DNA of 63,473 nt from a virus (taxonomy: Duplodnaviria > Caudoviricetes). Numbering within the stretch: the first letter of the stretch is position 1; the number at the start of each line of letters is the position of its first letter. A model generated the notes under the pieces. The model was not told the DNA's origin, did not search any database, and saw only the letters and a list, made by a program, of their open reading frames with translations. Made by a program: the position numbers and the translations under genes. Of this stretch, positions 33,313-53,108 are shown piece after piece. The DNA lies in the IMG/VR virus record IMGVR_UViG_3300049811_000819, positions 1-63,473 of that record, one strand, 5' to 3'.

Positions 33313-34212
33313 TTGACACTCCCGTCGTCTCGAAGGGGTTGCACCAGAGAACAAAAAATCGGCTTGCTAGTTGTAGATTCCCGTTTGATCGCCGGTGAGC
33401 TAGGGATCGAGCATCGTGGATTACGTCAGACAGTCGAGAAGTATTTGAACGAGTTACAAGAGTTCGGGACGATAACATTTCAAATGTCATCGTCACGGAT
33501 GCCGGATGGACGCATTAACCCGAAACCTGAGCGCTATTGTTTCCTCAACGAAGATCAGGCGACCTTCCTGATGACGCTTTCCCGCAACACTCCCCAAGTA
33601 GTCGCTTGTAAGCAAAACCTAGTCAAGGCGTTCTCAAAGGCTAAAGAGTTAATCAAAGAAGTCAACCCTGCAAAAAGCGATCGGGAATTAGAGATCGAAA
33701 AAATCCGGGCGATCACCGAAAACGTCTATGCGATAAGCAAAACCGACGTTGAGAAAATGCGGGAACTCAAAAATTTCTCCCCTCCTACCCAAGTCGAATA
33801 CTATCGCCTAGAACAAGAACGAGTAAAAGAGCAGGCGGAACGTGCCAAGACAGAGGCTGAACAGCTTCGGTTAGAGCGTTCCAAAATAGTCCACTCCCCG
33901 AAAAAAGAAACCCTGTACCCTGTAGGAACTACTCTACTCACCCCGGAACAGCTAAAAGACAAGCTAATTACCGACATGGCCGCCTACATCGACAAAATGG
34001 TCAACGAAAAAGGAATCAAGCCGAAAATACGGGATTTACAGCAGAAATTCCAGTCCCGCAAGGTTCCCGATGATAATGGCAAGCTTGTCAGAATTAATGC
34101 GAATATTTTGCGATCGCTCCTACCGGAAGCTTTAGAGCGATGCGAATGCGATCGAGAAAATGTTCTGTTGGGATTACCCCTAAACCGAGTCAGAGTCTCT
34201 CGAACCCACTAG
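33313..34212 (+). CDS. Rha-family antirepressor-like protein; start uncertain, possibly 5'-truncated
   Basis: VVDSRLIAGELGIEH...LNEDQATFLMTLSRN...KQNLVKAF. Confidence 0.8.
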   Translation: MTLPSSRRGCTREQKIGLLVVDSRLIAGELGIEHRGLRQTVEKYLNELQEFGTITFQMSSSRMPDGRINPKPERYCFLNEDQATFLMTLSRNTPQVVACKQNLVKAFSKAKELIKEVNPAKSDRELEIEKIRAITENVYAISKTDVEKMRELKNFSPPTQVEYYRLEQERVKEQAERAKTEAEQLRLERSKIVHSPKKETLYPVGTTLLTPEQLKDKLITDMAAYIDKMVNEKGIKPKIRDLQQKFQSRKVPDDNGKLVRINANILRSLLPEALERCECDRENVLLGLPLNRVRVSRTH

Positions 34213-34291
34213 AAACTTTCAGTTTAAAATAGTGATGCCCCCGATCGCTTCGGGGGACTAACCAATTCAACCTAAAAGGCAGGTCAAAATG
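34211..34291 (+). promoter_or_regulatory. Antirepressor promoter and two-hairpin leader (copy 1)
   Basis: GAAACTTT..TAAAAT; GCCCCCGA-TCGCT-TCGGGGG-ACTAACCA; ACCT-AAAAGGC-AGGT; ATG. Confidence 0.75.
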
Positions 34292-35053
34292 GCTAACTCA
34301 AGTTTAGCAGTTTTCGAGTTTCAGTCTAATTCCGTCCGAATTCTCTCAATCGATAATGAGCCGTGGTTTGTGGCGCGGGATGTTTGCAATGTACTTGGTA
34401 TTTTAAATGTTTCGCAAGCTCTTGCGCGATTAGATGGGGACGAAAAGCGTCTTGTGAATAGCGAAGGGGGTATCATTTCAAATGATGATCCAGACGTAAC
34501 AAGGCTTCTAGCTGTTAACGAGTCTGGTATGTACTCCCTTGTACTATCGTCCCGCAAGTCAGAAGCACGGGCTTTCAAAAAATGGATCACTTCAGAAGTC
34601 CTCCCCTCAATCCGAAAAACGGGAGGATATGTGCAACAGGAGTTGTCGGAAACTGAAAAACTGAGGATTAAGCTAGAAAACGCAAAAATCGAGCTAGAAA
34701 TTGCAAAACTGCGGCTAGAAACGACGAAAGTAGATGTAGAGCGAGAGCGTTTTGCGTTGGAATCGAAACAACTAAGTGAGCCAATCCCTCAATTTTCGGA
34801 GATTCCTGTCGCTAATGCGTATAGCTCCAATGCGGCTAATACTATCCAGCGAGCAAAGCTAATCAACGCAATCGCCGCATACATGGACAAATGCGAGCGA
34901 GAACACAAACGGATTCCTGATATTCGGAATTTGCACCAACGATTTCAGCGATGGATTTTGATAACCGACGATGGCAATCCAATTCGGGTCAATTCTGGCA
35001 TACTTAAAAATTTGATGCCAGAAGTCAACGCTTGTCGTGCCGAGCGTCATTAG
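34289..35053 (+). CDS. Bro-N domain antirepressor-like protein
   Basis: EPWFVARDVC, NESGMYSLVLSSRKSEARAFKKWITSEVLPSIRKTG. Confidence 0.92.
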   Translation: MANSSLAVFEFQSNSVRILSIDNEPWFVARDVCNVLGILNVSQALARLDGDEKRLVNSEGGIISNDDPDVTRLLAVNESGMYSLVLSSRKSEARAFKKWITSEVLPSIRKTGGYVQQELSETEKLRIKLENAKIELEIAKLRLETTKVDVERERFALESKQLSEPIPQFSEIPVANAYSSNAANTIQRAKLINAIAAYMDKCEREHKRIPDIRNLHQRFQRWILITDDGNPIRVNSGILKNLMPEVNACRAERH

Positions 35054-35126
35054 CGATCGCTCCTACCAGAAACTCTAGAACGCTCTAAAGTCTCTCGAAC
35101 CCACTAAAACGATTAATCCTACGTCC

Positions 35127-35158
35127 ATCCCCCTAGAGAAGCTTCTAGGGGGATTTTT
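35127..35158 (+). terminator. Intrinsic terminator
   Basis: ATCCCCCTAGA-gaagct-TCTAGGGGGAT followed by TTTT. Confidence 0.75.
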
Positions 35159-35249
35159 AGTGCGATGTAGGGGATGTGGAACCGGGGAGGGATTGGGGGG
35201 GGTAGGGACGGGATAGGGACAAGGATAGGGGGATGTTAAAACGTTAGAG

Positions 35250-35678
35250 CGATGTTAGGGAGTAAATAACGTAGGAAAAAGATATATATGTCAATACTTC
35301 TAACCTTTTTGTTAGTATGTTTCACTTTTTTACCCACTTACTCTTTTTTGGTTCAACCCCCCTACTTTTACTGCTGACCTTGCTAATTTTTCTAGCGAGT
35401 AGTACAAGTATTCTATGTTAAAGATTTTGACTCGATGTTAGGGAGTAAATAACATAGAGAAAAGATATATATATCAATACTTCTAACCTTTTTGTTAGTA
35501 TGTTTCACTTTTTTACCCACTTACTTTTTCCCGATCCAATTTCCTATCTTTCCACGGATGACCTTGCTCTATCCCCTCCCTTTTTTTCCTTCCCCTATGA
35601 TCCTTGAAACATTCATAACAAATTTCTACAGACTAGACAGGGTAAGCGTTTCAGGATGTTATCTGATACCCTAACATC
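35250..35678. repeat. Non-coding inverted-arm element C with a duplicated left arm
   Basis: Direct repeat of about 92 bp at 35250 and 35433; inverted arm at 35606-35678 closely matches 4664-4737. Confidence 0.85.
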
Positions 35679-35708
35679 CTCGAACACCTCGACATAGCGA
35701 TCGCAATT

Positions 35709-35793
35709 CTGATATATTACATATACTACGAATGTAACATATCTTATCGCTTATAGTAGAGTCTGATGTATTACATATACTACTTATGTAACA
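35709..35793. repeat. Two 31-bp direct repeats, each palindromic
   Basis: CTGAT(A/G)TATTACATATACTAC(GA/TT)ATGTAACA at 35709 and 35763. Confidence 0.8.
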
Positions 35794-36142
35794 CAACCCC
35801 CTTTTTTCGTCTGTTTTGACTAACTATATAGGTAGCCCTAACATCAATAACACTTTCTGAAAGTCTTACTGGGAGAGGATTTAGGTGTTGGATTTATCAA
35901 TGACACCCCTCGAACACCCTAACATCCCTCTAGCCCAAAACACAGCCCCCATCTAAATCCAAGAATTTAGATGGGGGCATCGGGAAACGCGGTTCTAAAG
36001 GTGGTGACAAAAATTTTGAAAACCCCTCTGAAACCGAGACACAGCAAGGATTAGAAGGTGTTCGTATCTCACTTTTTGAAAAATCGGCTGAAAAGGAAGG
36101 GGTACGTTATTGTCGTACCCCTTGAGGCATCGGGAAACGCGC

Positions 36143-36214
36143 TAGAATACTTGTATCGCCCTCTAGTTCTCGCTAGAGGGACTAAACAATAAGCCTAAAC
36201 AGGAGGCACTAATG
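36143..36214 (+). promoter_or_regulatory. Antirepressor promoter and two-hairpin leader (copy 2)
   Basis: TAGAAT; GCCCTCTAG-TTCTCG-CTAGAGGG-ACTAAACA; GCCT-AAACAGG-AGGC; ATG. Confidence 0.78.
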
Positions 36215-36988
36215 TCTGATACAAGTTTAGCAGTTTTCGAGTTTCAGTCTAATTCCGTTCGTATTGTGATGATCGACGGCGATCCGTGGTTTGTAGCGCG
36301 GGATTTGTGCGAAGCGTTAAACCTTCGCGATACCTCTAAAGCTTGCGCTCGATTGGATGTTGACGAAAAGCTGATACGAACATTAGTCGTATCAGGTCAA
36401 AACCGTGAAGTAGTAATAATTTCAGAATCGGGGATGTATCGTTTGGTTTTTAGATCGCGCAAACCTGAAGCGCAAGCGTTCAGAAAATGGGTAACATCTG
36501 AAGTTCTCCCCTCGATCCGAAAAACAGGACGCTACTCGCTTCCCTCCCCCTCCCCCTCCCCCCTATCCCTCCCCGAACAATTAGCTGCGGCCGGACTACC
36601 CGAAGATTGGCCAGTCAAAAAATATCCCCTAGGAGTTCCCACGGGAGAAAAGCCACCTCTGCCAAGCGATCGCCCTGGGAGTTTAGAACGACAAGAAATC
36701 GAATTGACAATTTTGCTGTGCGAGGCTTTTGGAGGGCGGCTAGTCACGCCGGAGGAAGCGGCGATCGTTGCACCCGAATTAAAGTCAGCGATCCGAATGC
36801 ACTTTCGGAGCCATGGCCGTGGATGGAGTTGGGCAACCATCGTCAAGGCATACACTTTTGACAACTGCTGGTGGGAACGATTTTTTAAGGAACCGGTGAT
36901 CAGGTATTTCAAGTTCAACCCCCTTGCACCTCGCCAACCCCAATTTGCGGATCAGAAATTTTTGCTTGAAACTTCAAGCAAAAATTAG
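36212..36988 (+). CDS. Bro-N domain antirepressor-like protein
   Basis: DPWFVARDLC, SESGMYRLVFRSRKPEAQAFRKWVTSEVLPSIRKTG. Confidence 0.92.
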   Translation: MSDTSLAVFEFQSNSVRIVMIDGDPWFVARDLCEALNLRDTSKACARLDVDEKLIRTLVVSGQNREVVIISESGMYRLVFRSRKPEAQAFRKWVTSEVLPSIRKTGRYSLPSPSPSPLSLPEQLAAAGLPEDWPVKKYPLGVPTGEKPPLPSDRPGSLERQEIELTILLCEAFGGRLVTPEEAAIVAPELKSAIRMHFRSHGRGWSWATIVKAYTFDNCWWERFFKEPVIRYFKFNPLAPRQPQFADQKFLLETSSKN

Positions 36989-37088
36989 AGTAAAATACGG
37001 GAAGATGCCTCCTTCTCCTGGCATCTGATTAAATTAATCCTTTTGAAAACCGCAAAAGGATTAATTACTCGAAAATCGGGTACCAAGC

Positions 37089-37514
37089 GTGATAGAAGCA
37101 AATATAGTAGTCAATCTAATAGACGATCTACGGATCGAGCGGGGCTGTTTTTGGTCGCCGCTCACAATCTTGCTGTTTGGTGACTACACAGACTGGGAAT
37201 TGTTCGGGCAAATTCGTGATCAAACCGGTAGTGAATCACTGTATGCCGATTTTCAGTTTGAGCCAATCGTGTTAGTGGATAGGGTAGAAGATGAAGTCAC
37301 TAAAACCTATTCACGAATAGTTCCTTTTCTGGGTGCTTCTCAATCTTTGGCAATCCCCCCGACTAAAATAATCAGTGCTACTACCCCAATCGCCATCGGA
37401 AAAAACCGATGGGCTTTTGATATTAGGATTCGCAATCCAGATGATCTTGAGATAGTTCTACCGATTTGCGAGGGAGCGGTTGAAGTTAGCGATCGAGTAA
37501 CGGTGATAGTCTAA
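37089..37514 (+). CDS. Putative virion fibre-attachment protein
   Basis: Beta-rich; IERG...GQIR...WAFDI...EGAVEV; first gene of a structural-like operon. Confidence 0.5.
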   Translation: MIEANIVVNLIDDLRIERGCFWSPLTILLFGDYTDWELFGQIRDQTGSESLYADFQFEPIVLVDRVEDEVTKTYSRIVPFLGASQSLAIPPTKIISATTPIAIGKNRWAFDIRIRNPDDLEIVLPICEGAVEVSDRVTVIV

Positions 37515-37735
37515 TGCAAACAATAGTTATCGAAAATGGCGAGGTTATTAGGGTTGAAAATCAGCTAAGTACAACGCTGGTTTTAAATCGTGATCCAAGT
37601 ATTTATATCAGAGGTGAAAGAGGATTTTCAGCCTATCAGGTAGCTGTTGCCAACGGTTTTGTTGGCACAGAAGAAGACTGGCTAGAAAGTTTAAGAATCC
37701 AAACAGAATTAAATTGGAATAGTACAAATTGGTAA
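37514..37735 (+). CDS. Small fibre-associated protein
   Basis: GFSAYQVAVANGFVGTEEDWLESL motif typical of phage fibre/collagen-like proteins. Confidence 0.75.
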   Translation: MQTIVIENGEVIRVENQLSTTLVLNRDPSIYIRGERGFSAYQVAVANGFVGTEEDWLESLRIQTELNWNSTNW

Positions 37736-37739
37736 ATTT

Positions 37740-38303
37740 ATGACAACTTTTAAAATATTTCGAGAAACCGCACTGCCTGGGTTGTTACAGCCTTACGCAA
37801 TGTATGTAGTCGCCCCAACAGCAAAACCTGATTACATTGAAATTTATGTTACCAACTCGACCGGAAGTGCTGCTAGAAGGGTTCTAACAGATACCGATGT
37901 TCAAGGGATGATTAATTCATCCCTTAGCGGAATGTCGGGGCTACAGGTAGTAGCCGATATTACAGCAAGAAACGCTTTAAATCCCACTACAAATCAGTTA
38001 GTTTTAGTGCTAAATGCCACGGGTGATAATACAGTATCCAGTGGGGCGGCAACTTACGTTTATCGGCTTTCCACAACAAGTTGGATTAAGATTAGTGAAG
38101 CCGAATCCTTAGACGCAGTGGTAAATTGGACAAATATACAAGGTAAGCCTACCAGTTCTGCTAGTGCGATCGATACTGCGGTGGCTAATTCCCACACTCA
38201 CGCCAACAAAACTCAGCTAGACAAAATAGGAGAAAATGAAGATGGTCTCTTAACCTATAATAATAATTTGCCAGTAATTGCTTGGAACAGCGTCGGATGG
38301 TAG
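37740..38303 (+). CDS. Virion fibre/decoration-like protein
   Basis: VVADITARNAL, WTNIQGKP and HTHANK motifs. Confidence 0.7.
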   Translation: MTTFKIFRETALPGLLQPYAMYVVAPTAKPDYIEIYVTNSTGSAARRVLTDTDVQGMINSSLSGMSGLQVVADITARNALNPTTNQLVLVLNATGDNTVSSGAATYVYRLSTTSWIKISEAESLDAVVNWTNIQGKPTSSASAIDTAVANSHTHANKTQLDKIGENEDGLLTYNNNLPVIAWNSVGW

Positions 38304-38304
38304 C

Positions 38305-38832
38305 GTGAGTAATTTTAGGACACATAAAGTAGTTAGTTCTTTACCTGTCACTCTCGAACCGAATGCAGTTTATTTTGTTAGAGCGGGGGCTGGGTTTGAT
38401 TTGTATTGTACTGATCAAACAGGAAATATCGCCCACCAAATAAATGGTGGGGGTACTATTACGGCAGTTAGTCAATTAACTAACGATAGCGGCTATATAA
38501 CAGCTAGTAGCACTGCTATTACTGACTCTGATGTAGTTTTTAATATTGCCGTCTTTAACGAGACTTTTATTTTATTCAACAATGGGGTTTTTGAGCTATT
38601 ATCGGTTGCAGCAATTCAAAATTTAACTAATAGCAATAGTGGTAGCATTACTTTTAGAAATAACGGAACTGCAATAGCTGGATTATCTAGTTTGTCGATT
38701 AGTGGAACAAGGTCAGGAACTTTTACGCCTAGTGCCACGCAAAATATATCTACTGGTACAAATCTAGATATTGTGATCACAGGATTAAGTCAAAGTATTC
38801 AATTAGCTTTTACCTTGAGGATAAGAAAATGA
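38305..38832 (+). CDS. Fibre-like structural protein
   Basis: N-terminus resembles the preceding gene; SQLTNDSGYIT motif; likely GTG start at 38305. Confidence 0.65.
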   Translation: MSNFRTHKVVSSLPVTLEPNAVYFVRAGAGFDLYCTDQTGNIAHQINGGGTITAVSQLTNDSGYITASSTAITDSDVVFNIAVFNETFILFNNGVFELLSVAAIQNLTNSNSGSITFRNNGTAIAGLSSLSISGTRSGTFTPSATQNISTGTNLDIVITGLSQSIQLAFTLRIRK

Positions 38833-39353
38833 CGATTTTATCTGTTTACGAAACCGCTCCCAATACCTTTAGGGAGGTTACTTTAAAAGCCGCAAATGTA
38901 GCTTTTAACAGTGGAGAATTACGAGAACGAATTACTACTGCAATTATTAATAATGCCCAACAAGGTTCGGCACTCTTAAATGATCCCGCTTACTTTGCTA
39001 AGGTTAAAAGTGAATTTATGCCAGATATAAATTCAGTTGTGATTTTAGCTAAAAAAGTGGCAATAGGAGAAATATTAATTTACAACAGGGACGCAGCTTT
39101 TCAGTTGACTCTAAAAGCTATCCCCATTGCTTGCGCTGGTGTAGCATCTTTCGTCCTCACACAGGAACAAAGATCGTCTTTGAATTTTAACCTATTAACT
39201 GCTCCCCAAGTGTCTAGATCGTTGTTGCCCGCCTTCTTGGCGCCCGACGGGCAGTTAGAGCCTATTAGCGATGCGGCTATTTTATCAATGGTTACAGAAT
39301 TTAGTAATAGTCCTGTTTACTTCCAGATTTTAGATAATCAAGGGTTTGTCTAA
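38829..39353 (+). CDS. Hypothetical protein in the fibre operon
   Basis: ATGA coupling. Confidence 0.6.
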   Translation: MTILSVYETAPNTFREVTLKAANVAFNSGELRERITTAIINNAQQGSALLNDPAYFAKVKSEFMPDINSVVILAKKVAIGEILIYNRDAAFQLTLKAIPIACAGVASFVLTQEQRSSLNFNLLTAPQVSRSLLPAFLAPDGQLEPISDAAILSMVTEFSNSPVYFQILDNQGFV

Positions 39354-40860: not shown

Positions 40861-41180
40861 GATTTTTTCCAAAATACTCGGTTTGTCGGGGTGGGATGGT
40901 AGAAAATCTCACCGTTGGTTTTCTTCTGAAGCTTCAAGATTAATTGCCCTTGAGACGGGGCTTCGATACCTAAGACTATCGATATAGAAGCGTTAAGCTG
41001 AGAACTGAACTTGATCAGGTCGTCTTCTTTGAGGTTTGCGGCAATATCGGGGAGATAGGTATTTTCGTGTTTGTAATGTTTGGTGACGTTATTGGCGTTT
41101 TTGCGCTTAATCGCTCGTTTTAGCCCAAGCACCCAATCAGATGCTTTTTTTTGTAACTCAGGAACAACAGTTTGCTTCAA
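40857..41180 (-). CDS. Hypothetical protein
   Basis: Abuts the nblA stop (TTG start) and is coupled to the next gene. Confidence 0.55.
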   Translation of the reverse strand: MKQTVVPELQKKASDWVLGLKRAIKRKNANNVTKHYKHENTYLPDIAANLKEDDLIKFSSQLNASISIVLGIEAPSQGQLILKLQKKTNGEIFYHPTPTNRVFWKKS

Positions 41181-41387
41181 TTATTTATTCTCCAGTTTTA
41201 AAGAACTATCTTCTAGATTCCATTCATGTTTCAAAATATTTTTGTACATTGCTTCTCGAACCAAAATCGTTTCGTAAAGCTTAATTAAAAGTTCTTGTGA
41301 TTGCTCGTGATTCAACTGTTGAACCTGCAAACTAAACGAGCATAGGTCAAATTGTTGTTCTAGAGTTAGTTCTGTTTCGTCCATCAC
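41181..41387 (-). CDS. nblA: Phycobilisome degradation protein NblA
   Basis: LTLEQQFDLCSFSLQVQQLNHEQSQELLIKLYE...YKNILKHEW matches the NblA consensus. Confidence 0.93.
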   Translation of the reverse strand: MMDETELTLEQQFDLCSFSLQVQQLNHEQSQELLIKLYETILVREAMYKNILKHEWNLEDSSLKLENK

Positions 41388-41417
41388 TTTACCTCTTGAT
41401 TTCTAATTTATACTTAA

Positions 41418-41929: not shown

Positions 41930-42145
41930 TTAGTTTGATTCGTCCCTAGAATCACCTGCCAAAAATAAACCAATAGCGATTAGTTTTCCCTGCCAATTAT
42001 CTGAGGCAATGTAATGAGCAAATAGCGCAATACCCGAAAATTCAGGGTGTTGCGCTGAGTAAGTAATAAAATCACTTAGAACATAAATAGCGGCAATTAA
42101 TGAAGTTTTCCAGTCTTTAAACAATGCTCGATTTAATATTTTCAT
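41930..42145 (-). CDS. Putative holin
   Basis: 71 aa; DWKTSL plus hydrophobic segments; GLFLAGD ending. Confidence 0.55.
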   Translation of the reverse strand: MKILNRALFKDWKTSLIAAIYVLSDFITYSAQHPEFSGIALFAHYIASDNWQGKLIAIGLFLAGDSRDESN

Positions 42146-42521
42146 AAACCCTCCTAAAAATTGGCTTGTCGCTGATTGTTAAAATTAGCTTATCTTCGTG
42201 CCATTTTGTAAATGTGTGGTCGTATCCTCGAATAATCTTTAGGTTGTCTTCGATAATAATTCCTGCGTATTTTAGCCCATCGTTAATATACTTTGCCCCA
42301 GCAGAAGTGTTATCAGGGTCACGGGCAAAATTAACGATTTTCCATTCATAGTGTAACCAAACCTCGCCTAAGAACCGTGGGATTTTTTGCTCTTTTACAA
42401 GGCTTGCAATATAAAAATTCCACTTTTTTTTGATGCTCGCACTTTTGAATTTGTTGCTTCGAGCTACTCGAATCTGATCGTTTAGTGTGGGAGGGAGGGG
42501 ACAGGTAAAAGTAGTGATCAT
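42117..42521 (-). CDS. rusA: RusA-like Holliday junction resolvase
   Basis: PPTLN, RDPDN, K..NDGL..AGII.EDN; likely start is ATG 42521. Confidence 0.8.
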   Translation of the reverse strand: MITTFTCPLPPTLNDQIRVARSNKFKSASIKKKWNFYIASLVKEQKIPRFLGEVWLHYEWKIVNFARDPDNTSAGAKYINDGLKYAGIIIEDNLKIIRGYDHTFTKWHEDKLILTISDKPIFRRVYENIKSSIV

Positions 42522-42547
42522 TTTTAGTCCCCCGTTTACGCGGGGGC
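42519..42547 (-). promoter_or_regulatory. Truncated leader hairpin (copy 6) before rusA
   Basis: GCCCCCG-CGTAAA-CGGGGG-ACTAAAA-ATG. Confidence 0.65.
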
Positions 42548-42558
42548 ATACAATTATT

Positions 42559-43311
42559 TTATTCGCCCAATAACAGTTGTCTTTGCCCTTCCGACAAAAT
42601 CCGAACAGCTTTGTCGATATTTTCTTGGTGTACAAAAGACTGAGTGATCGGGCGCTGGATCAAATCCAATAAATCAGGTGCTATTTTTTGCAATCGACGT
42701 TCTAACTCCGCCCCCGATTTAAATGTAACTCCCGTCATTTTTTTTATATGATCTTTTAATTGTGCAGTAGTCATTCCCTTGCGGCGATCACCACAACGCT
42801 GATCTATTACTTCTAATACGACTTTTTCGGTTTCGACAATTTGATCAGCCATGCCACGCAATGCGAGGACAGTCTCTTTGCCGTGTAAGACTAGCATCGT
42901 ATGGTCTAATTGTCTCAGTTCAAGTTGCTTGGACAATACTTCGTTTTGTAGTTCTAACTCTCGAATGCGATCGCTTTGCTGTGGGATAACTTCTTTGATT
43001 AGTTTTTTGGCTTCTGAAAAAGCTCTAACTAGGTTGCGCTTGCATTGACGCACTTGCTCACTATTCCGAGAAAGTGTCATCGTATAAGTTGCTTGATCTT
43101 CGTTTAAGTAACAATAAATTTCTGTAGAAGTATTACCCTGACTTGTTTTGAACTCTCGCATTTTAAATTCTAGAGTTCCAAATTGTTCAATTTCTGTTAA
43201 ATACTTTTTGATTGTTTGCAAAAAGCCTTTATGGGTAATCCCTAATTCATCAGCGATTAAACGGGAATCAACAACTAAAGACTCGTTAACTGTTAAAATC
43301 TGAATAGACAT
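42559..43311 (-). CDS. Rha-family antirepressor-like protein
   Basis: LVVDSRLIADELGITH...YLNEDQATYTMTLSRN. Confidence 0.88.
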   Translation of the reverse strand: MSIQILTVNESLVVDSRLIADELGITHKGFLQTIKKYLTEIEQFGTLEFKMREFKTSQGNTSTEIYCYLNEDQATYTMTLSRNSEQVRQCKRNLVRAFSEAKKLIKEVIPQQSDRIRELELQNEVLSKQLELRQLDHTMLVLHGKETVLALRGMADQIVETEKVVLEVIDQRCGDRRKGMTTAQLKDHIKKMTGVTFKSGAELERRLQKIAPDLLDLIQRPITQSFVHQENIDKAVRILSEGQRQLLLGE

Positions 43312-43399
43312 AGTGGCTCCTATTAGCCTAAATGTTTAGTCCCCCGATCGCATCGGGGGCAATAATAATATTATAATCTGAAAGTTTCTGTTAAGATGC
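43309..43399 (-). promoter_or_regulatory. Antirepressor promoter and leader (copy 3)
   Basis: TAACAGAAACTTT..TATAAT; GCCCCCGAT-GCG-ATCGGGGG-ACTAAACA; GGCT-AATAGG-AGCC. Confidence 0.85.
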
Positions 43400-43402
43400 T
43401 AA

Positions 43403-44125
43403 CTAAGCGCGCTTAATCGTTAACGTCGTCGTTTCGGGCAATCGATATTCGGGATAAGCTAATCGCCATGCCTGATGATGATAAAGATTTTGGAATTCAA
43501 ATCGGGGAGACGGCACTTTTTTGATCTCTAGCCCTAGTTTATTACTTGCCGCTTTCAGTAGTCGCCAGTTAAACGAGGTTTCCCGTACATCGTTAAACTT
43601 GGCAACACGGATAATCGAACTATACTCAAAAAGCTCATCAACCGCTTCAGAAAGAGCATAATTTTCGGCTTCTAGTAGTTGTTTTTGTTCCTCTAGAAGT
43701 TCCATTTTCTCCAATAAGGCGACCTGCTGTTCTGCTAGTTTTAAGTTTTCACGAGCAAGCTCAATCGCTGTTTTGGGTTTAGCGATCGAGTAGCTTCCCG
43801 TTTGACGAATAGAAGGAAGTATCTCGGAGTGCATCCATCGGTTTAGTTGTTTACCCATCTCAGTTCGCGATCGAGATAACAAGAATGTGATCGCCGCATC
43901 ATTGACGATTAGTACACGCTGAACTCCTCCGTTAGTTTCAAGGGAGTAGTCGGCGACTACATCCTTTCCTAAATCCTCTTGTAGTACCGCTTTTGCGTCA
44001 GCCGGGCGCGTTTTGCTTCCCATAGCTTTAAGGACATCGGCTAGTACAAACCACGGATCACCGTCGATCACTACTACCCGGATCGCGTTTCCACTAAAAT
44101 CGAATGGTACAATATTGTTAGACAT
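43403..44125 (-). CDS. Bro-N domain antirepressor-like protein
   Basis: FDFSGNAIRVV..DPWFVLADV...WMHSEILPSIRQTGSY. Confidence 0.9.
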   Translation of the reverse strand: MSNNIVPFDFSGNAIRVVVIDGDPWFVLADVLKAMGSKTRPADAKAVLQEDLGKDVVADYSLETNGGVQRVLIVNDAAITFLLSRSRTEMGKQLNRWMHSEILPSIRQTGSYSIAKPKTAIELARENLKLAEQQVALLEKMELLEEQKQLLEAENYALSEAVDELFEYSSIIRVAKFNDVRETSFNWRLLKAASNKLGLEIKKVPSPRFEFQNLYHHQAWRLAYPEYRLPETTTLTIKRA

Positions 44126-44213
44126 AGTGGCTCCTATTAGCCTAAATGTTTAGTCCCCCGATGCGATCGGGGGCAATAATAATATTACAATCTGAAAGTT
44201 TCTGTTAAGATGC
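44123..44213 (-). promoter_or_regulatory. Antirepressor promoter and leader (copy 4)
   Basis: Near-identical direct repeat of copy 3 over about 90 bp, with the hairpin loop inverted. Confidence 0.85.
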
Positions 44214-44242
44214 AACTTGTTTCCCGTGCTGACCAAAAACTT

Positions 44243-45132: not shown

Positions 45133-45138
45133 AGTTTA

Positions 45139-47052: not shown

Positions 47053-47098
47053 GGTGTTTTTCACGATCGCTAAGAAAATTATACTTGAAGTTTTGCTA

Positions 47099-47812
47099 TC
47101 ACGCCATAACAAAAGCGTTCAGGTTTTTATCAAGAATTCTAGCCTGTCGGCAATTTCCCGCAAATACAAAAGAGCATTCTAGGGAGTCACATATTCCGAC
47201 GCGACGGTAGTAAGGCGTTAACAGTTCTTGCTCTACCCATACTGCCATGAACGGGGGGTAATGCTCACAGTGCTTGTCTTCGTAAGGAGTGTTGCAGATC
47301 GGACAGTAGGATTTTCCGTAAAAGTTTCCGCCAATTGAAACATTCGCCCGCCGACCATAGAGAATATCCGAGGCTCCGGGGTGGGACTGTTCAATAAAAG
47401 CAAATACTAAAACCTGATGATAACCGTCTTGCTCAATAATTGCTCTGTCTTCGCTTGGGTTCGGGGACTTAGAAAGTATCTTTCGCATCCCTTCCTCGCT
47501 TACTCGTGGTAACGAATAAAGCAAAGCATCGTAAATCATCCCGAAAGTTTTTTCTGCCCGTTCCCATTCGTGATCCAACATCAAAGGACAGCCAGGATAG
47601 CTCGCTACCATAGTTGTTAAGGCGCTTTCATCCCACGCCATCAGTGAGCCGTGAATCAGGTTGTTGCTGGCCATCATTGGGAATCGCAAAAGTTCGGACG
47701 CTTCCCACGGGTCAGACCCCATCGGGGAGTAAGCATTAATTGCTAATAGTTCCTCGGCTGTCGGTTCGCGCGTTTCTAGTAATTTTTCAAAATCTGAGCG
47801 AGTTAGTAGCAT
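47099..47812 (-). CDS. Prohead protease-like protein
   Basis: PLMLDHEW, VSIG, CPIC...CEH.P, ECSFV. Confidence 0.75.
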   Translation of the reverse strand: MLLTRSDFEKLLETREPTAEELLAINAYSPMGSDPWEASELLRFPMMASNNLIHGSLMAWDESALTTMVASYPGCPLMLDHEWERAEKTFGMIYDALLYSLPRVSEEGMRKILSKSPNPSEDRAIIEQDGYHQVLVFAFIEQSHPGASDILYGRRANVSIGGNFYGKSYCPICNTPYEDKHCEHYPPFMAVWVEQELLTPYYRRVGICDSLECSFVFAGNCRQARILDKNLNAFVMA

Positions 47813-47954
47813 GGCTATAAAAAATCCTAATAATAATTCTACTTGTAAAACAGAAGTTTATGGTAAGATGAGCGCAATAAATACAAAATATAAATCAAAA
47901 ATTTACTTCAGGGAGTACGAGTTACGGGGCAGGAAGCAGCCTCGTTTTTTTTGT

Positions 47955-48593
47955 CTATAGCCAGCCTGAGCCAGCAAGGAGGTTTGTCGTCGGGCGCGTG
48001 CGAGAATTGGAAAAAACAAAATAACATCCGCAATTATCTCGGCAGGAACAGCGATCGGTGGGACGGGGGAGGGTTCCAATTGTCTGCCATCCCGCCGCTT
48101 CGTACACTATGCACTCACGGCAGGATTCGGTTTTTGTCCTGATTCGGCGTTCCCATCGGTTTACTAAAGCGTTTCCCCGGCGATTTCCCTCCTCGAAAGC
48201 TTCACGAGCTTTAGTGATGTAACGTTTTGAGCGGTTTAGAATTTGTTTTTCTGTTTGAGTTCCAAGTATAATGTCCCGGCTAAACTTTCGGAGTCTAGCG
48301 TACTGTGAGCGAAGCATTGCCCCGATCCTTCCGTAGTCGGATTGGGTCATATCTGGCTTCCCGACTCGATACAGTTGGATCGTCAACATCTTAATTTCCT
48401 CGCTCATGCGAGACTCCCATTCTCGAACGGTGATTCGTTCAGAAAGCATATCCCGTGTAAGTCGATCAGTCCGATTAATCCTTTCGTTGATCGCCGTAGC
48501 GACAAGCTCACGAACACGGGCGGCCGAAATAAATTTCTTGGTTCGGTTGTCGTGATAGCGTCGAGTTAGGGGATTAAATGAAAAATCAAACAT
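47955..48593 (-). CDS. Minor head morphogenesis protein (Mu F-like)
   Basis: ESCREC...CRDNCGC. Confidence 0.75.
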   Translation of the reverse strand: MFDFSFNPLTRRYHDNRTKKFISAARVRELVATAINERINRTDRLTRDMLSERITVREWESRMSEEIKMLTIQLYRVGKPDMTQSDYGRIGAMLRSQYARLRKFSRDIILGTQTEKQILNRSKRYITKAREAFEEGNRRGNALVNRWERRIRTKTESCRECIVYEAAGWQTIGTLPRPTDRCSCRDNCGCYFVFSNSRTRPTTNLLAGSGWL

Positions 48594-48595
48594 AG

Positions 48596-48769
48596 TCAAA
48601 GCTGTTCATCGATCTCTGGTTCAAGAAAGTTTTCAAAATCAGGATCGGGAGGTTTTTTCTTCCAGTCTGAGATTGCTAAATTTATGTCTTCAGAATTTAC
48701 GTTTGCCTTTGATAATAAGCGTGTTACTGGATCAAGAGTTTTTTCTTTTGGGTTAAATTTGCTTCGCAT
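48596..48769 (-). CDS. Small hypothetical protein (57 aa, not in the ORF track)
   Basis: MRSKFNP...EIDEQL fills the gap between the EAL and minor head genes. Confidence 0.6.
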   Translation of the reverse strand: MRSKFNPKEKTLDPVTRLLSKANVNSEDINLAISDWKKKPPDPDFENFLEPEIDEQL

Positions 48770-48772
48770 GAT

Positions 48773-49477
48773 TTACTCAATACAAAGGTCTTCGGGATGA
48801 ACAGGACAATGAAAAGCGTAACCTTGAAAATATTCTAACCCTAAACTGCTTAAAAGATTAAATTGCAACAAAGACTCAACTCCTTCAGCAACTAAAACTG
48901 TTCCTTGTTCTTGACAGAATTTTGCAAAATACTTAATAAAACTAGCTTTTTCTGAATTGTCAGCGTCAACCAAAAATAGGCGATCAAGTTTGATGATCGA
49001 GGGAGAAATAGAGAATAGTCTATCAAGCCCTGCGTGATTGCAAGGAAAATCGTCAATAGCAATTCTATAGCCTAAGTCTTTTAAAAAACAAATTTCGTTT
49101 AATCCGTTTGGGGAAATAGGATCGCTTTCTGTTATCTCAATAATTACCTTGTCAGGATTTAAAAAAGTCGTCAACTGCTTTATGTGAGTTTTGTTTGCTA
49201 ATTGAATAGGCGAAACATTTACGCAAACTGACGAGATATTGTACCTATTAATATCCTCACTAACAATTTTTGCGATTAATAAATAAAGAGAGAGAAGCTG
49301 ATTAGCTTCAGCCGCAACCTCAAAAATATGTCCTGCGCCCTCTGTTTCAAAACCTTTCCAGCGAAGTAAAGCCTCGCAAGAAAACGGAATCTTTTCTGAA
49401 TTGACAATTGCCTGATAATACGGGCGAATATCGCCTCTGTCTAATGCTTTAAGCAGGTCTGCTGGATTCTTTCTCAC
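48773..49477 (-). CDS. Stand-alone EAL-domain (c-di-GMP phosphodiesterase-like) protein
   Basis: YYQ, EALLRW, VNVS, EITE, IDDF, IKLDR, AEGVE, QGY; likely GTG start at 49477. Confidence 0.92.
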   Translation of the reverse strand: MRKNPADLLKALDRGDIRPYYQAIVNSEKIPFSCEALLRWKGFETEGAGHIFEVAAEANQLLSLYLLIAKIVSEDINRYNISSVCVNVSPIQLANKTHIKQLTTFLNPDKVIIEITESDPISPNGLNEICFLKDLGYRIAIDDFPCNHAGLDRLFSISPSIIKLDRLFLVDADNSEKASFIKYFAKFCQEQGTVLVAEGVESLLQFNLLSSLGLEYFQGYAFHCPVHPEDLCIE

Positions 49478-50732
49478 TTTTTTCTTTCTCACTTTTTGGT
49501 GTACTTTCTTCTGTGGCGGTGTCGTCAGTTTCGTCGCTCGACATTCCATCAATTGACTCTGACCATTCTGGCCAAAGTATCCGATACTTATTTTGAGCAT
49601 TCTCGGTGTACCAATCAAAGCCTTTGCGTAATACTATCTCTGTGTCGATTGCTTGTTTAATTGCGCTCGTCAGTAGTTGACACCATCCGTACCTCATCCG
49701 AGAGTAGCGGCGATCAGGCGATCGAGATAGCTCTTTAGTTCCCCCCTTTGATTCGAGTCCGGGAAAAAAGTACGAGGGAAAGCCAGGGATAATTAGCCTA
49801 TATCGGCATTGCAAAAGATGATTAATTAATCCCGATAGTTCAGGATTAAGGTTTGCCATTTTGCGAATATCGTGTTTATCGCTAGTTAGTACAAAATCGG
49901 TGATCGTCCCTGATTGTCGCCGTAGCTGTATTTCTTGTTCAAATTTTCGCTTGTTTTCTTCGCTTATGCCCGGGAAGATGTACAAGGTCGGATCACTCGC
50001 AATGTCATCGGCTTTTCTTTGGAGATTGTCGGCCGCTCGTTTTACGTCTGTCCATGCTTCAAGCGATGGTAGCCAAAGCGAACGCCCATAAAGGAATTCG
50101 GGAGAATGCCGGAGATGGATAAGTTTTTCTGGCTCGAAAAAATAATCGGGATCGGAATCGGATAAATACTTTCTTTGTTCAAATCCGATCAGTTGTCCTT
50201 GGTCTGTTTCTTTTCGGAACATCTCGAATGTAGGCAGATAAAGACTCTTGTTTACTCCAAAATCCTTGCTTTTGTTCGGAGATAATCCTTCACGCTCAAT
50301 CCCTAGTTCGATAAAACAATCGCCTTTTCCTAATGTCCATCGCAAGGCTTTTTTAAGCTTGTCCCCTCCGATCACGTGAGAATCTAAAGATTGCTTTCTT
50401 TGGCGTAATTCTTCAGCAATTGCAAAAACTTCAGCGTTTATGGGTGTTTCTTCGTCATCGAGCGTATCGGCAATCGCCCAACCTTGATCGTCCCCGTCGC
50501 TACTAGCGAAAGTATCATCGGCGGCCATTTCGAGGGAATGGAACACCTCATAGCACCATTGGTTAAGTTCGATTAGCTCACGGGAAATTCGAGGGTTACG
50601 AATCGGATTTTCCTCGATTTCTAGGTCGTATCTCCGCGTCATCGATAGAATTCCCGATGAAGCAAGCGATCGCTGTGAACCTCTTAGCGATCCGTCTTGT
50701 TTTTTGTCTTTTTTCTTTTTTGTTTTGGCCAT
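49449..50732 (-). CDS. Portal protein
   Basis: GDCFIE, LIHLR, YGRSL motifs; first gene of the head operon. Confidence 0.85.
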   Translation of the reverse strand: MAKTKKKKDKKQDGSLRGSQRSLASSGILSMTRRYDLEIEENPIRNPRISRELIELNQWCYEVFHSLEMAADDTFASSDGDDQGWAIADTLDDEETPINAEVFAIAEELRQRKQSLDSHVIGGDKLKKALRWTLGKGDCFIELGIEREGLSPNKSKDFGVNKSLYLPTFEMFRKETDQGQLIGFEQRKYLSDSDPDYFFEPEKLIHLRHSPEFLYGRSLWLPSLEAWTDVKRAADNLQRKADDIASDPTLYIFPGISEENKRKFEQEIQLRRQSGTITDFVLTSDKHDIRKMANLNPELSGLINHLLQCRYRLIIPGFPSYFFPGLESKGGTKELSRSPDRRYSRMRYGWCQLLTSAIKQAIDTEIVLRKGFDWYTENAQNKYRILWPEWSESIDGMSSDETDDTATEESTPKSEKEKSEKESSRPA

Positions 50733-50823
50733 CGGGAGCTACAATTCTTTCCCTATTCTAAGGGAAAAAGACGACTTTGTTAGCCGTCTTTCTTGAAACA
50801 TCACACAAGGAAAGGAAAAAATT

Positions 50824-51153
50824 TTAAAACTCGTGCCACTCTAGCAATTCGTCTGGCACATCATTGTACTTTTGCCAGATAATACTAGGATCATCGTTGG
50901 GATCACCTTCATTGCTAGGAACTTCATAGCTCATCCCGAAGCATTCTATAACATTAGCATAGTTTCTAGTGAGAATAGGAGCAGGGACAACTTCCGATGG
51001 ACGCAACCAGAGGTTTTCTGGTTCGGGGTTTTGGAAGTTCACCGATAGGTATGGGCCATCGGGAATAACTTCTACGATCCGACCTACTCCACGATCAATA
51101 TCTTCCTTGATTTCTTCCGTGTTTATCTTGACAAATTCATCTATTTTAAACAT
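50824..51153 (-). CDS. Hypothetical protein with an SH3-like N-terminus
   Basis: FKIDEFVKI...GVGRIVEV; GAGGAG SD. Confidence 0.65.
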   Translation of the reverse strand: MFKIDEFVKINTEEIKEDIDRGVGRIVEVIPDGPYLSVNFQNPEPENLWLRPSEVVPAPILTRNYANVIECFGMSYEVPSNEGDPNDDPSIIWQKYNDVPDELLEWHEF

Positions 51154-51157
51154 TGTT

Positions 51158-51412
51158 TTACTCCTCTGGTTGATTCAGGATTGCTTTTTCTTGTTCGATA
51201 GAAATAGCGGAGTAAAACAATTCATCGGTAAGCCGATCTTGCAAAATCTTAGCTACAGCATTAGTAACAAAAAAGAATTTCCCTTGCGCTAAATTTACGG
51301 ATGATACGTTTGGCATTACGTCGTATTCGATAAAAAATACTTCGTAACAGTTGACAAAGTGTTGTCTTCCTTTAGCGTCTTCAATTACTAAAGGACTGAA
51401 TTTATCACTCAT
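51158..51412 (-). CDS. Hypothetical protein
   Basis: First gene after promoter copy 5; GGGAG SD. Confidence 0.65.
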   Translation of the reverse strand: MSDKFSPLVIEDAKGRQHFVNCYEVFFIEYDVMPNVSSVNLAQGKFFFVTNAVAKILQDRLTDELFYSAISIEQEKAILNQPEE

Positions 51413-51443
51413 GATGACTCCCTTAATTTCTTGACTTAATTAA

Positions 51444-51473
51444 ATCATACATAGTCTTTCTTGAATTGTCAAG
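51444..51473 (-). promoter_or_regulatory. Promoter/operator copy 5
   Basis: TTGACA-17-TATGAT; CTTGA-CAAT-TCAAG. Confidence 0.82.
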
Positions 51474-51491
51474 TAAACCAGGAGAACAATT

Positions 51492-52247
51492 TTAGATAAC
51501 CTGTAAAGCTTTCTCGTAGTACCGAATTCTGTCTTCCAATGCATTAAACCCCCCGTTGACTCGTCGAGTAACTTGTTTTACTGTTGCACCTCGATCAATT
51601 AGTGCGTTCATTTTATTGCGATACCACCAAAACCCAGAGGGGAGAAAAAGGTAATTATCCCGAACGTATTGCCACCCCTCCATCACTCTCTGATCGCCAA
51701 CAAAGTCAGCAAAAGCTTGGTAGTTTGCTCTGCCAGTCATTTGAAGAGCGTCCACGCCACGAAACCGTCGCCCGTCACCAGCAAAGATATTGCCGAGGTC
51801 ACGCCGTCCTTCGTAGGCAGTTCCTGACGCTAATTCAACCATCCAGCGAAGTCCGCCACTTTCGTGGGCAATTTGAGCTAAAAAGTGGCGGACACGGGGG
51901 ATAGTAGTAATATCGAAGCGCTTGAGACAGCGATCGAGAGCTTGGAATTGGCGATCTGTAATTGCTCTCCCAAAAACCGCCTCGCACTGGTCTTTACGGA
52001 CAACAGGAGACTCTATCCCTGTCCCGTCAAAGTGTCCTCGAAAAGCATACCAGTTAAAGCGTCCATCAATCGGAGAATCGACTTCTATTAGGTAGTGACT
52101 TCCTTTGAGCTTTAGCCACTTGTAAATCACTTTTTGCCCCTTAGTAATCGGAACAGACTTAAAATCTGTGGGCAAATTCGGAGCGGAGGAGTCAAGGGGG
52201 TGAGACTTTAAGAGTGTAGGAGCAGTAGCGAGCAGGGTGTTAATCAT
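51492..52247 (-). CDS. GH19 (chitinase-like) endolysin
   Basis: HFLAQIAHESGGL, YEGRRDLGN, LQMTGRANY, TRRVNGG.N...R. Confidence 0.92.
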   Translation of the reverse strand: MINTLLATAPTLLKSHPLDSSAPNLPTDFKSVPITKGQKVIYKWLKLKGSHYLIEVDSPIDGRFNWYAFRGHFDGTGIESPVVRKDQCEAVFGRAITDRQFQALDRCLKRFDITTIPRVRHFLAQIAHESGGLRWMVELASGTAYEGRRDLGNIFAGDGRRFRGVDALQMTGRANYQAFADFVGDQRVMEGWQYVRDNYLFLPSGFWWYRNKMNALIDRGATVKQVTRRVNGGFNALEDRIRYYEKALQVI

Positions 52248-52269
52248 TTTGTTAAGTTTCCGTTTTCAC

Positions 52270-53025
52270 TTATTCGCCAATTAACATCTGTCGGCTTACA
52301 CTTTTTCGTTTTTGAGCAAACAAATCTTTAACTGTTTTAATATTTTCTTCTGGAATATAGGGAGCCTGTACTGCTCGCATTCCTTGACAAATTAGGTGAT
52401 CCTGTTTTTGTCGTTTTAGCCAAATTTCTAATTCCCGCCCTGTTTTGAATCCTAATTGTTTGGCCATATCAGCTAGACTTCGCCCAACAAAAGATACGTT
52501 ACGCCCATCTTTGCAAACTACTGTCTCGGTGATAACTTCTTTGACCGGAACGATGGCATTGGGTACACCTTTAATTAAAGCCAGTATCTCAACTCCGTGG
52601 AGCGACGCAATTGCTTCTGATTTGTCTAAGATGTATCGATTATTTTGAGAGATTTCTAACTGCATCTCCAATTCTCGAATGCGATCATTCTGTGCTGGAA
52701 TTACTTCTTTGATTAGTTGTTTCGCTTTCTCAAATCCTTCAACTAATTTTTCTTTGCAGTCTAGAACCTGTTCGGTATTGCGAGAAAACGTCATCAACAA
52801 AGTAGCTTGGTACTCATTTAAGTAACAGTAAGAAATTTCGTAAGTCCCTCCCTGTGGTCGTTTCACCACGTCGATTTCAAATTTTACTGGTTCTTTTCGC
52901 CCCAAACGGTCAAGATATTTCTTAATTGTTTTAAGTAAACTTGCGTGTTCAATCCCTAATTCTTGTGCAATTAAACGGGAATCAACAACTAAAGACTCGT
53001 TAACTGTTACAATCTGAATAGACAT
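52270..53025 (-). CDS. Rha-family antirepressor-like protein
   Basis: LVVDSRLIAQELGIEH...YLNEYQATLLMTFSRN; paralogue of 42559..43311. Confidence 0.88.
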   Translation of the reverse strand: MSIQIVTVNESLVVDSRLIAQELGIEHASLLKTIKKYLDRLGRKEPVKFEIDVVKRPQGGTYEISYCYLNEYQATLLMTFSRNTEQVLDCKEKLVEGFEKAKQLIKEVIPAQNDRIRELEMQLEISQNNRYILDKSEAIASLHGVEILALIKGVPNAIVPVKEVITETVVCKDGRNVSFVGRSLADMAKQLGFKTGRELEIWLKRQKQDHLICQGMRAVQAPYIPEENIKTVKDLFAQKRKSVSRQMLIGE

Positions 53026-53108
53026 AGTGGCTCCTATTAGCCTAAATGTTTAGTCCCCTAGCTTTAACTAGGGGCGATACCAATATTATACCGAAAGTTT
53101 TTGTTAAG
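53023..53108 (-). promoter_or_regulatory. Antirepressor promoter and leader (copy 5)
   Basis: TAACAAAAACTTT..TATAAT; GCCCCTAG-TTAAAG-CTAGGGG-ACTAAACA; GGCT-AATAGG-AGCC. Confidence 0.85.

Follow-up and report, generated by a model that had tools for sequence, protein, structure and literature searches.

The closest described counterparts of the element examined here are the PeSL (promoter-early stem-loop) cassettes of T4-type phages. In the sections that we drew on of two papers (Arbiol et al. 2010, PMC2839356; Comeau et al. 2014, PMC4122927), a PeSL joins a short conserved sigma70-like promoter to a GC stem-loop, lies between open reading frames (ORFs), and flanks variable accessory genes; relatives differ by the insertion or deletion of a whole promoter-gene unit, and the PeSLs are seen as linker sequences for recombination. 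Our subject is a structured leader that precedes five genes with Bro-N or Rha domains in a provirus of 63,473 bases (IMG/VR record IMGVR_UViG_3300049811_000819). We call this stretch the window; it is the whole virus record, which IMG/VR classes as a provirus that is 100% complete. Here too, a composite of promoter and stem-loop occupies variable intergenic spaces. The PeSL stem-loop is a transcription terminator, according to a reporter assay in the same sections. In contrast, the first hairpin of our leader (P1) comes after the -10 box, at a distance of 5-10 nt, and lacks a T-run. The leader also differs from a PeSL in having a second hairpin, which is linked to the Shine-Dalgarno (SD) sequence, and the phages that carry it are not T4-type. 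In their logic, the leader cassettes are closest to PeSLs.

The morons of lambdoid phages, reportedly described by Juhala, Hendrix and colleagues in 2000, are also similar: like them, a leader cassette is a gene with a putative promoter of its own, inserted between genes that are adjacent in relatives. Classic morons are unrelated genes that each have their own signals, whereas here a whole family has one structured leader.

At the level of mRNA, 5'-terminal stem-loops are stabilizers, as in ompA (Emory, Bouvet and Belasco 1992, cited in PMC7509114). As far as that source's account of ompA goes, our leader is similar in having a stable hairpin within a few nt of the 5' end (which is predicted in our case), with a conserved stem and an irrelevant loop sequence. 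The mechanism as outlined there needs no conserved tail, whereas our leader adds ACUAAC and an invariant stem base. The second hairpin (P2) resembles SD- or AUG-occluding operators and RNA thermometers such as prfA (in the passage on it in PMC7509114) in that part of the SD lies within a small hairpin. In our leader, P2 ends 3-4 nt before the AUG, the start codon may also be paired, and P2 has merely 3-5 bp.

An earlier note on this DNA, made from the letters alone, compared the leader to the C4 RNA of phage P1 and the CI RNA of phage P4. The likeness lies in post-transcriptional control of the antirepressor genes of temperate phages, which is a prediction for our leader. The P1 c4 and P4 CI systems need a trans RNA that is complementary to the target. 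Searching either strand with filters off, we found no extra leader-like sequence (complementarity of 8-10 nt would escape this search), and hence no trans RNA or extra complementary copy; also, Rfam models gave no match, and the P1 loops differ between copies. These results do not support the likeness.

The ends of IS200/IS605 elements and the attC sites of integrons have an imperfect palindrome beside a short conserved motif at cassette borders, as our leader does. PF01797 (Y1/HUH TnpA) had no matches in the six frames of the record, while 6 of 14 control genomes were positive. IS200/IS605 elements have subterminal hairpins at both ends, with cleavage tetranucleotides, whereas the cassette at site B (below) has P1 at its 5' side only. 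The sole recombinase match that an integron-like system might use is a sub-threshold hit to Phage_integrase at 1-1107. By eye, we saw no linker-complementary sequence upstream of P1 that would make paired R''/R' boxes.

Two hairpins with compensatory changes

The five genes, which we name by their start positions, contain Bro-N (34289, 36212, and 44125) or Rha (43311 and 53025) according to Pfam. Their leaders have a common layout: a -10 box, 5-9 nt, a G, the GC hairpin P1, the linker ACTAA(A/C)CA, the SD hairpin P2, and the ATG. Inspection of the sequence agrees with the positions and stem arms in the earlier note. The leader of Bro-N gene 34289 (34225..34291, + strand; 60.6 bits with the covariance model R2, described below) has a -10 box TAAAAT at 34225-34230, the G at 34237, P1 at 34238-34256 (CCCCCGA/TCGGGGG), the linker ACTAACCA at 34257-34264, P2 formed by ACCT (34270-34273) and AGGT (34281-34284), and the ATG at 34289. 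The leader of Bro-N gene 36212 (36143..36214, + strand; 59.4 bits) has TAGAAT at 36143-36148, the G at 36158, P1 at 36159-36180 (CCCTCTAG(T)/(G)CTAGAGGG), the linker at 36181-36188, P2 formed by GCCT (36193-36196) and AGGC (36204-36207), and the ATG at 36212.

On the reverse strand, the promoter-leader of Rha gene 43311 (43309..43394; 76.6 bits) begins with the motif TTAACAGAAACTTT at 43394-43381, followed by TATAAT at 43375-43370 and the G at 43360. P1 is CCCCCGAT gcg ATCGGGGG; then come ACTAAACA, P2 (GGCT/AGCC), and the ATG at 43311. The promoter-leader of Bro-N gene 44125 (44123..44208, - strand; 78.2 bits) is nearly identical despite the unrelated gene behind it. The two upstream regions match over ~105 nt, from GCATC... 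through ATGTCTA, with two exceptions: the -10 box of 44125 is TGTAAT instead of TATAAT, and its P1 loop is inverted (cgc instead of gcg). The promoter-leader of Rha gene 53025 (53023..53107, - strand; 70.2 bits) has the motif TTAACAAAAACTTT at 53107-53094, TATAAT at 53090-53085, the G at 53075, P1 as CCCCTAG(T)/(G)CTAGGGG, then ACTAAACA, P2 (GGCT/AGCC), and the ATG at 53025.

A cut-down leader precedes rusA (42519..42561, - strand; 20.5 bits, E = 0.0012), as the earlier note had also seen; the gene, with its ATG at 42521(-), is RusA-like (PHROG, 1.7e-17). Its -10 box TAAAAT (42561-42556) uses the stop codon of the Rha gene. The G is at 42547 and P1 (CCCCCG/CGGGGG) is at 42546-42529. The tail ACTAAAA (42528-42522) directly abuts the ATG, so this copy has neither P2 nor an SD.

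When we scanned the window with R2 and with filters off, we recovered the five full copies and the cut-down one. The other matches were reverse-strand echoes of the palindromes and two weak ones (E >= 0.08). The sequence GGGACTAA occurs 11 times in the window, as compared to 1.70 expected, and none of 100 shuffles reached 11. Six of the 11 are the leaders, four are in coding or terminator contexts, and one (17867+) is a weak look-alike. We attribute that leader-like copy (17843-17881, + strand) to chance: it is antisense within a 4583-aa ORF, its R2 E value is 0.08, and its fold has z = -1.35. The minimum free energy (MFE) folds of the five full leaders all contain both P1 and P2, at -19.7 to -21.9 kcal/mol (z of -2.1 to -3.2).

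To examine the helices, we tallied pairs in the 27 distinct leaders that we eventually found (see the next section). For alignments, we relied on model-based ones (A7 and A12) and fixed-window ones (A11 and A13), because the MAFFT alignments (A1-A4, A9, and A10) had misplaced gaps in the stems. A12 has 20 distinct rows. A11 has 14 distinct rows out of the 18 then known; three of the four omitted rows duplicate the P2 segment of a row that was kept, and the fourth (L103b) differs in the loop only.

Both P1 and P2 are well supported, and in both, compensatory changes preserve the pairing. For P1, 93.1% of the cells of A12 pair, and the covariation score is 0.321, as compared to 0.130 for shuffled alignments (none of 500 reached 0.321) and at most 0.137 for slid controls. 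Of the 162 cells that the six basal pairs make up in the 27 leaders, 159 are canonical or wobble. Pairs 1-3 are C-G, apart from two C.A cells in the related phage G002. A single wobble occurs overall. In pairs 4-6, both bases change together, either from C-G to U-A or from G-C to U-A or A-U. For P2, 85.7% of the cells of A11 pair, and the covariation score is 0.602, as compared to 0.150 for shuffled alignments (again reached by 0/500) and at most 0.119 for slid controls. The inner three pairs of P2 are canonical in all 27 leaders, with four pair types at one position. P2 has 3-5 bp, a 7-nt loop in 24/27 leaders, and a tail of 3-4 nt to the AUG. Its arms are GGCU/AGCC, GCCU/AGGC, ACCU/AGGU, GACU/AGUC, UUACU/AGUAA, GUUA/UAAC, or, in the leader L153, (A)ACU/AGU(C). 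The covarying two-hairpin element that the earlier note proposed is borne out by these scores.

A third helix, P3, is tentative. It would pair positions 6-8 of the linker (N-C-A) with U-G-N' (from the AUG and the next base), which gives 3 bp. The variable pair, between linker position 6 and ORF position +4, is canonical in 25/27 leaders (CG in 18, AU in 4, and UA in 3), and the middle pair includes one U.G. A series of otherwise near-identical leaders runs through U-A, C.A, and C-G at the variable pair. P3 would explain both the invariant CA of the linker and its A/C alternation, because the alternation tracks ATGT versus ATGG.

Across the leaders, the G, the three basal C-G pairs of P1, and ACUAAC are nearly invariant. 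The loops, the upper stem, the spacers, and the arms of P2 are free to vary.

The P1 loops of some near-identical leaders are exact reverse complements of each other. One such pair is GCG/CGC in the window (43341-43359 versus 44155-44173). The other is GTACTAA/TTAGTAC, in L073 (from the related phage G001) versus L153 and L154. These loop differences are flip-flop inversions of the hairpin, and they indicate that the loop sequence is free of selection.

Relatives, associated genes, and cassette insertions

We built a first covariance model (R1) from two copies and rebuilt it from six (R2). In three related phages with 40-95% protein identity, R2 found one copy (G001), two copies (G002), and one copy (G003). 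Among 41 loci with homologs of the large terminase (TerL; 63-82% identity), it had 20 matches with E < 0.01, spread over 15 loci. A scan of metagenome contigs with an exact but degenerate pattern gave 20 stretches. Sixteen of these are true leaders, and the other four (L139, L140, L143, and L150) are GC-rich chance matches. Altogether, we found 27 distinct leaders in 49 occurrences. R2 found none in 66 loci around the Bro-N genes of other viral contigs, and the two matches of the degenerate pattern in viral contigs were both chance matches to coding sequence. In the close relatives, the leader genes have a conserved position just after TerL.

The earlier note had suggested building a covariance model and checking Rfam. 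The model does find related leaders, but Rfam had nothing to match. With Rfam 15 at gathering thresholds, the whole window gave no matches, including to the CRISPR-DR families; at E <= 10, the region 43290-43400 gave four weak and unrelated matches (11.5-13.6 bits, as compared to cut-offs of about 40-43). A literature search on structured leaders of prophage antirepressor or Rha genes (supplements excluded) did not find an earlier description. As far as Rfam 15 and that search reach, the leader is previously undescribed, and we regard it as a new family of structured leaders carried on mobile antirepressor-like cassettes.

All 27 distinct leaders precede ORFs that start with MA, MS, or MT. We scanned eight leader genes of the relatives in Pfam: two contain Bro-N, one contains Rha, and five belong to no family. 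The latter five are of a type that we call "LQRFD...GYARMSG". In the window, the Bro-N domains are 34-59% identical to each other and the Rha domains are 43-60% identical, with C-terminal halves that are mostly different, so the genes are more than plain duplicates of each other. As mentioned above, the leaders of 43311 and 44125 precede unrelated genes. Also, between the cassettes of 43311 and 53025, 96-100% identity is confined to about -40 to +50. Retention or exchange of the promoter-leader is thus independent of the gene body.

A sixth gene of this kind has lost its leader. This Rha gene (33313-34212, + strand; Pfam) is preceded by 30 nt (GTAAGACAAGTCAGCCCCTTGACAAAAACTT) that match the 53025 cassette, and its Rha frame is retained from about codon 14. 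In between, ~60 nt of unrelated sequence stands in place of the -10 box, P1, the linker, P2, the ATG, and the first codons. In 33270-33400, the only in-frame starts are TTG. This may be a decayed copy or one that is expressed by read-through.

A C-terminal domain of ~130 aa that ends in ...VSRTH is common to all three types of N-terminal domain (Bro-N, Rha, and "LQRFD"). It is found in the products of 34289-35053 and 33313-34212 in the window and of 58093-58848 and 62612-63403 in G002. Domains have thus been swapped among the members of the leader-bearing family. Across the types of N-terminal domain, the first ~10 codons (MAxxSLQxF) are common as well. An 18-nt repeat around Bro34289 (AGTCTCTCGAACCCACTA) was considered as a target duplication and rejected, as it is the shared coding tail (VSRTH*) of the paralogous C-terminal domains.

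At two sites, cassettes lie between genes that adjoin each other in relatives. At site A (42522..44242, - strand), the insertion comprises the leader and Bro44125, the leader and Rha43311, and the cut-down leader. The stop codon of orf44965 (44243) bounds it on one side and the ATG of rusA on the other. These two genes overlap by ATGA in G001, G002, and L079, and a leaderless spacer of 149 nt separates them in G003/L084. The right end of the insertion is a bare P1 plus ACTAAAA fused to the ATG of rusA. At site B (52248..53140, - strand), the insertion comprises the leader and Rha53025, and two copies of a 15-nt sequence, CGGAAACTTAACAAA, flank it as a direct repeat (53140-53126 and 52262-52248). 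When the insert and one of these copies are taken out, orf53622 overlaps the endolysin gene by ATGA, as found in L084. In G001, G002, G003/L084, and L079, a holin-like ORF abuts the endolysin gene. Both sites are therefore empty in four relatives. The earlier note, which had proposed looking for such sites, read 42.5-44.2 kb as a cassette array, and the empty site A bears this out: the stretch is an array of leader-gene units that was inserted. An ortholog of Rha53025 (68% identity), with its leader, is found elsewhere in G001, within an extra segment of ~8 kb. This segment separates homologs of 7394-7804 and 4798-7362, two genes that adjoin each other in the window, in G002, and in G003.

A leader and its gene thus form a moron-type cassette with a shared, portable promoter-leader. 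The extra genes at sites A and B lie between neighbors that are adjacent in relatives. As for a promoter and terminator of their own, the -10 box is conserved, and a terminator-like hairpin follows only Bro34289 (35127-35154), unlike in lambdoid morons; most copies have no downstream terminator.

On the promoter side, upstream sequence is available for 26 leaders, and 25 of them have a TAnnnT box 5-10 nt ahead of the G. The 26th is the leader of 44125 in the window, with TGTAAT at the position that aligns with its neighbor's TATAAT. If transcription starts 6-8 nt past the -10 box, then P1 would be at the very 5' end of the transcript. In the window and its close kin, the -10 box is preceded by the motif TTAACAGAAACT(T/A)T. 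With at most one mismatch, this motif occurs five times in the window. It also occurs 1-4 times in each of four relatives, and the controls have none. Two of the copies are native and leaderless: ATAACAGAAACTTT at 7381..7394 (- strand), ahead of the tail gene 4798-7362, and another at 53154-53141 (- strand), inside the end of orf53622 and ahead of the endolysin site. Because its spacing to the -10 box is variable, we label it a phage regulatory motif; perhaps it is a phage-specific promoter or regulator site. More distant leaders carry a different upstream block. We rejected TTAACA as a general -35 box: it is 13 or 11 nt from TATAAT, and an alternative -10 box, TATTAT, is in two copies only. 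We also rejected P1 as a terminator, as it has no T-run and 0/6 P1 hairpins are in the terminator list.

Interpretations of the leader

We think it somewhat probable that the element is a cis-acting mRNA leader in a portable promoter-leader module joined to antirepressor-like genes. The mechanism that we picture from the sequences is as follows. The module would be ~100 nt, with a promoter (a TAnnnT -10 box, preceded in this phage by TTAACAGAAACTTT) and a structured 5' mRNA leader, and it would be joined to genes with Bro-N, Rha, or "LQRFD" N-terminal domains. The conserved home of these units is near the terminase gene, and the two intergenic insertion sites in this prophage are new. P1 would form a GC hairpin at the 5' terminus and so protect the mRNA against the decay by RNase E or RNase J that depends on the 5' end. 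The single-stranded ACUAAC might be a landing or standby stretch. P2 would hold half of the SD, and the NCA of the linker may pair with the UGN of the start codon (P3). Together, P2 and P3 would partly block the ribosome-binding site, which would make translation low or conditional, and similar for all copies. The ties of P2 and P3 to the SD and the AUG point to mRNA; the fixed place of P1 after the -10 box favors RNA as well; and a duplex operator would not be expected to have different stems in one genome. The RNA reading of the earlier note is supported to this extent: the simplest view of the element is as an RNA in which the SD, and perhaps the start codon as well, is occluded.

Several observations weigh against a damping and stabilizing mRNA leader. 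The transcription start, which we infer to be 0-3 nt ahead of the invariant G, is placed by the -10 spacing only, and a scan of the region for consensus promoters did no better than chance (35 found, 36.7 expected). RNAalifold predicted no consensus pair for A13, which runs from the linker to the ATG. Single-sequence MFE folds include P2 in 17/27 leaders and P3 in 14/27, and folds of the G001-type group prefer a rival hairpin, GGCCA/UGGCU, which also buries the AUG. The outermost pair of P2 is A.C in 11/27 leaders. The support for P3 comes from one variable pair. The sequences as a whole share descent. The alignments were fitted to the structure, A11 by hand and A12 by the model. The wobble pattern leaves the strand unfixed, because a C.A mismatch is a G.U on the opposite strand. 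Finally, the strict conservation of GCCC...GGGACUAAC exceeds what a mere stabilizer needs.

That conservation is what an RNA operator would account for: a trans factor, namely an RNA-binding protein or nuclease from the phage or the host, would recognize the base of P1 and ACUAAC, and would set the translation, processing, or decay of all the antirepressor-like mRNAs together, as a post-transcriptional regulon. We consider this unlikely, though it comes second after the mRNA leader. Almost no variation is seen in the G, the three basal C-G pairs, and ACUAAC, in contrast to the free variation elsewhere, and exactly P1 and ACUAA are retained in the cut-down copy. Given that P1 loops are inverted between close copies, any recognition would be at the stem base and the tail. 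As for the factor, a scan of 38 distinct window proteins in Pfam and PHROGs gave no RNA-binding or nuclease family except RusA and a CoiA-like nuclease; about half of the window's ORFs have no assigned family. A role in DNA seems quite unlikely to us. Here, the hairpin would be a recombination hot spot or a recombinase site by which cassettes are moved or swapped, with the leader as the joint, as in PeSL-like linker recombination or integron-like capture. The cassettes have demonstrably been inserted, and the bare P1 plus ACTAAAA at the right end of site A would suit such a joint. So would the identity of cassettes 43311 and 53025, which drops on both sides of its peak, while P1 is different. 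The palindrome also behaves as DNA, given the loop flips, which are DNA events, and the existence of recombinant leaders (L138). The phage encodes an RDF-like protein (recombination directionality factor) and has a weak match to tyrosine recombinases, and the PeSL authors, in the part of their paper that concerns GGGG...CCCC stem-loops, proposed the same role for these (PMC2839356). But the right end of site B has no hairpin, and the 15-nt repeat there is unrelated to the leader. The integrase-like gene is at the end of the prophage and below the Pfam cut-off. A DNA joint would not explain the covariation of P2 and P3 with the SD and the AUG, and homologous recombination between any 100-nt repeats would yield the same mosaics, with no special part for the hairpin to play. 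The single-stranded DNA hairpin that the earlier note offered as the moving part fares poorly on these grounds, as well as from the lack of a Y1 transposase.

A signal at the level of transcription, such as an antitermination or pause element (like nut boxB-boxA or the put sites of HK022), or a mimic of CRISPR repeats that decoys Cas6, strikes us as very improbable. The resemblance is in form only: a hairpin and a conserved 8-nt tail just past a promoter. Repeats of type I CRISPR systems have a hairpin and, at the end, a handle like AUAAACCG or CUAAGAAA. As described above, Rfam gave no match, CRISPR-DR families included, and just the four weak unrelated hits at E <= 10. Stems that differ between copies in one genome would be odd for a mimic of one repeat, and an antitermination signal is hard to reconcile with the absence of a terminator downstream of most copies. 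Also, P2 and P3 tie the element to the start of translation.

More speculatively, P1 and ACUAAC could mark the members of a phage-wide post-transcriptional regulon, like an address label, so that all antirepressor-like morons are switched on together, for instance at induction. The stem base would be bound or cut by a dedicated factor, which either the host or one of the many phage ORFs without a family would provide. The same 100-nt label would also serve as a patch of homology for plugging in new DNA-binding N-terminal domains and copying cassettes to new sites. We rate this proposal as unlikely.

Genome context and significance

Protein family scans of the window identified the large terminase (31602-33179; PHROG, 7.9e-138), the endolysin (51492-52247), the holin-like orf53622 (53122-53622), and the RusA-like resolvase (42117-42521), as well as tail proteins and a helicase. 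An integrase-like ORF at the left end of the prophage (1-1107, + strand) scores 20.5 bits against Phage_integrase, which is below the cut-off of 27.1. The RDF-like protein is similar to Gp3 (3044-4009, - strand; 3.8e-28), and there is a C5 cytosine methylase (28586-29605, - strand; 8.9e-65). These three suit a temperate phage and, together with the enrichment of HIP1 (below), fit a cyanobacterial host. One ORF, of 4583 aa (7961-21712, - strand), covers one fifth of the genome and is partly kept in G002 and G003, with 75-84% identity across the C-terminal ~1900 aa. Megablast of 30000-54000 against phage and plasmid collections gave no match.

The host is likely a cyanobacterium. The HIP1 sequence GCGATCGC occurs 13 times in the window, as compared to 0.87 expected, and the parts of PMC5861425 and PMC4390886 that deal with HIP1 report that it is hyper-abundant in most cyanobacteria. 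The earlier note had proposed a search of cyanobacterial genomes; the inference of such a host comes from HIP1. The TerL search of genome contigs gave one locus, L134 (JBIPMW010000308.1), an 86-kb contig whose TerL is 63% identical to the window's and which is binned in a metagenome-assembled genome of Crocinitomicaceae (Bacteroidota). It is probably a phage contig that was swept into the bin, so it gives no evidence about the host.

Between Bro34289 and the next leader gene lies a gene-poor gap of 1.16 kb (35053-36212), to which G002 holds a homologous region. The gap contains the strong terminator mentioned above and a G-rich run. By eye, it has two copies of a ~95-nt sequence that start near 35235 and 35425 (GATGTTAGGGAGTAAATAAC...TTTTACCCACTTAC), and two long hairpins with CATCGGGAAACGCG behind each (near 35978 and 36127); the second is just before the -10 box of 36212. 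Candidate identities for the gap are an origin, an att or packaging region, and small RNA genes. In G002, a region just after TerL (57900-57990, in locus L087) resembles a tRNA T-arm in reverse complement (GGGAGTCGAACCC). Next to the leader-Rha gene, there may thus be a tRNA gene or what is left of an att site.

Few accessory genes of phages are as common, or as poorly understood, as the "antirepressor" genes of the Bro-N, Rha, and KilA-N types, which are often present in multiple copies per genome. With its three helices, all open to testing, the leader is a new candidate for a cis-regulatory RNA motif. It is also a natural, portable expression module outside of T4-type phages, whose additions are visible from the empty sites. 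It offers a handle on the co-regulation of families of antirepressor-like genes and on the swapping of their N-terminal domains. If the stem base and the tail are a true protein site, then the motif would point to an unknown regulator.

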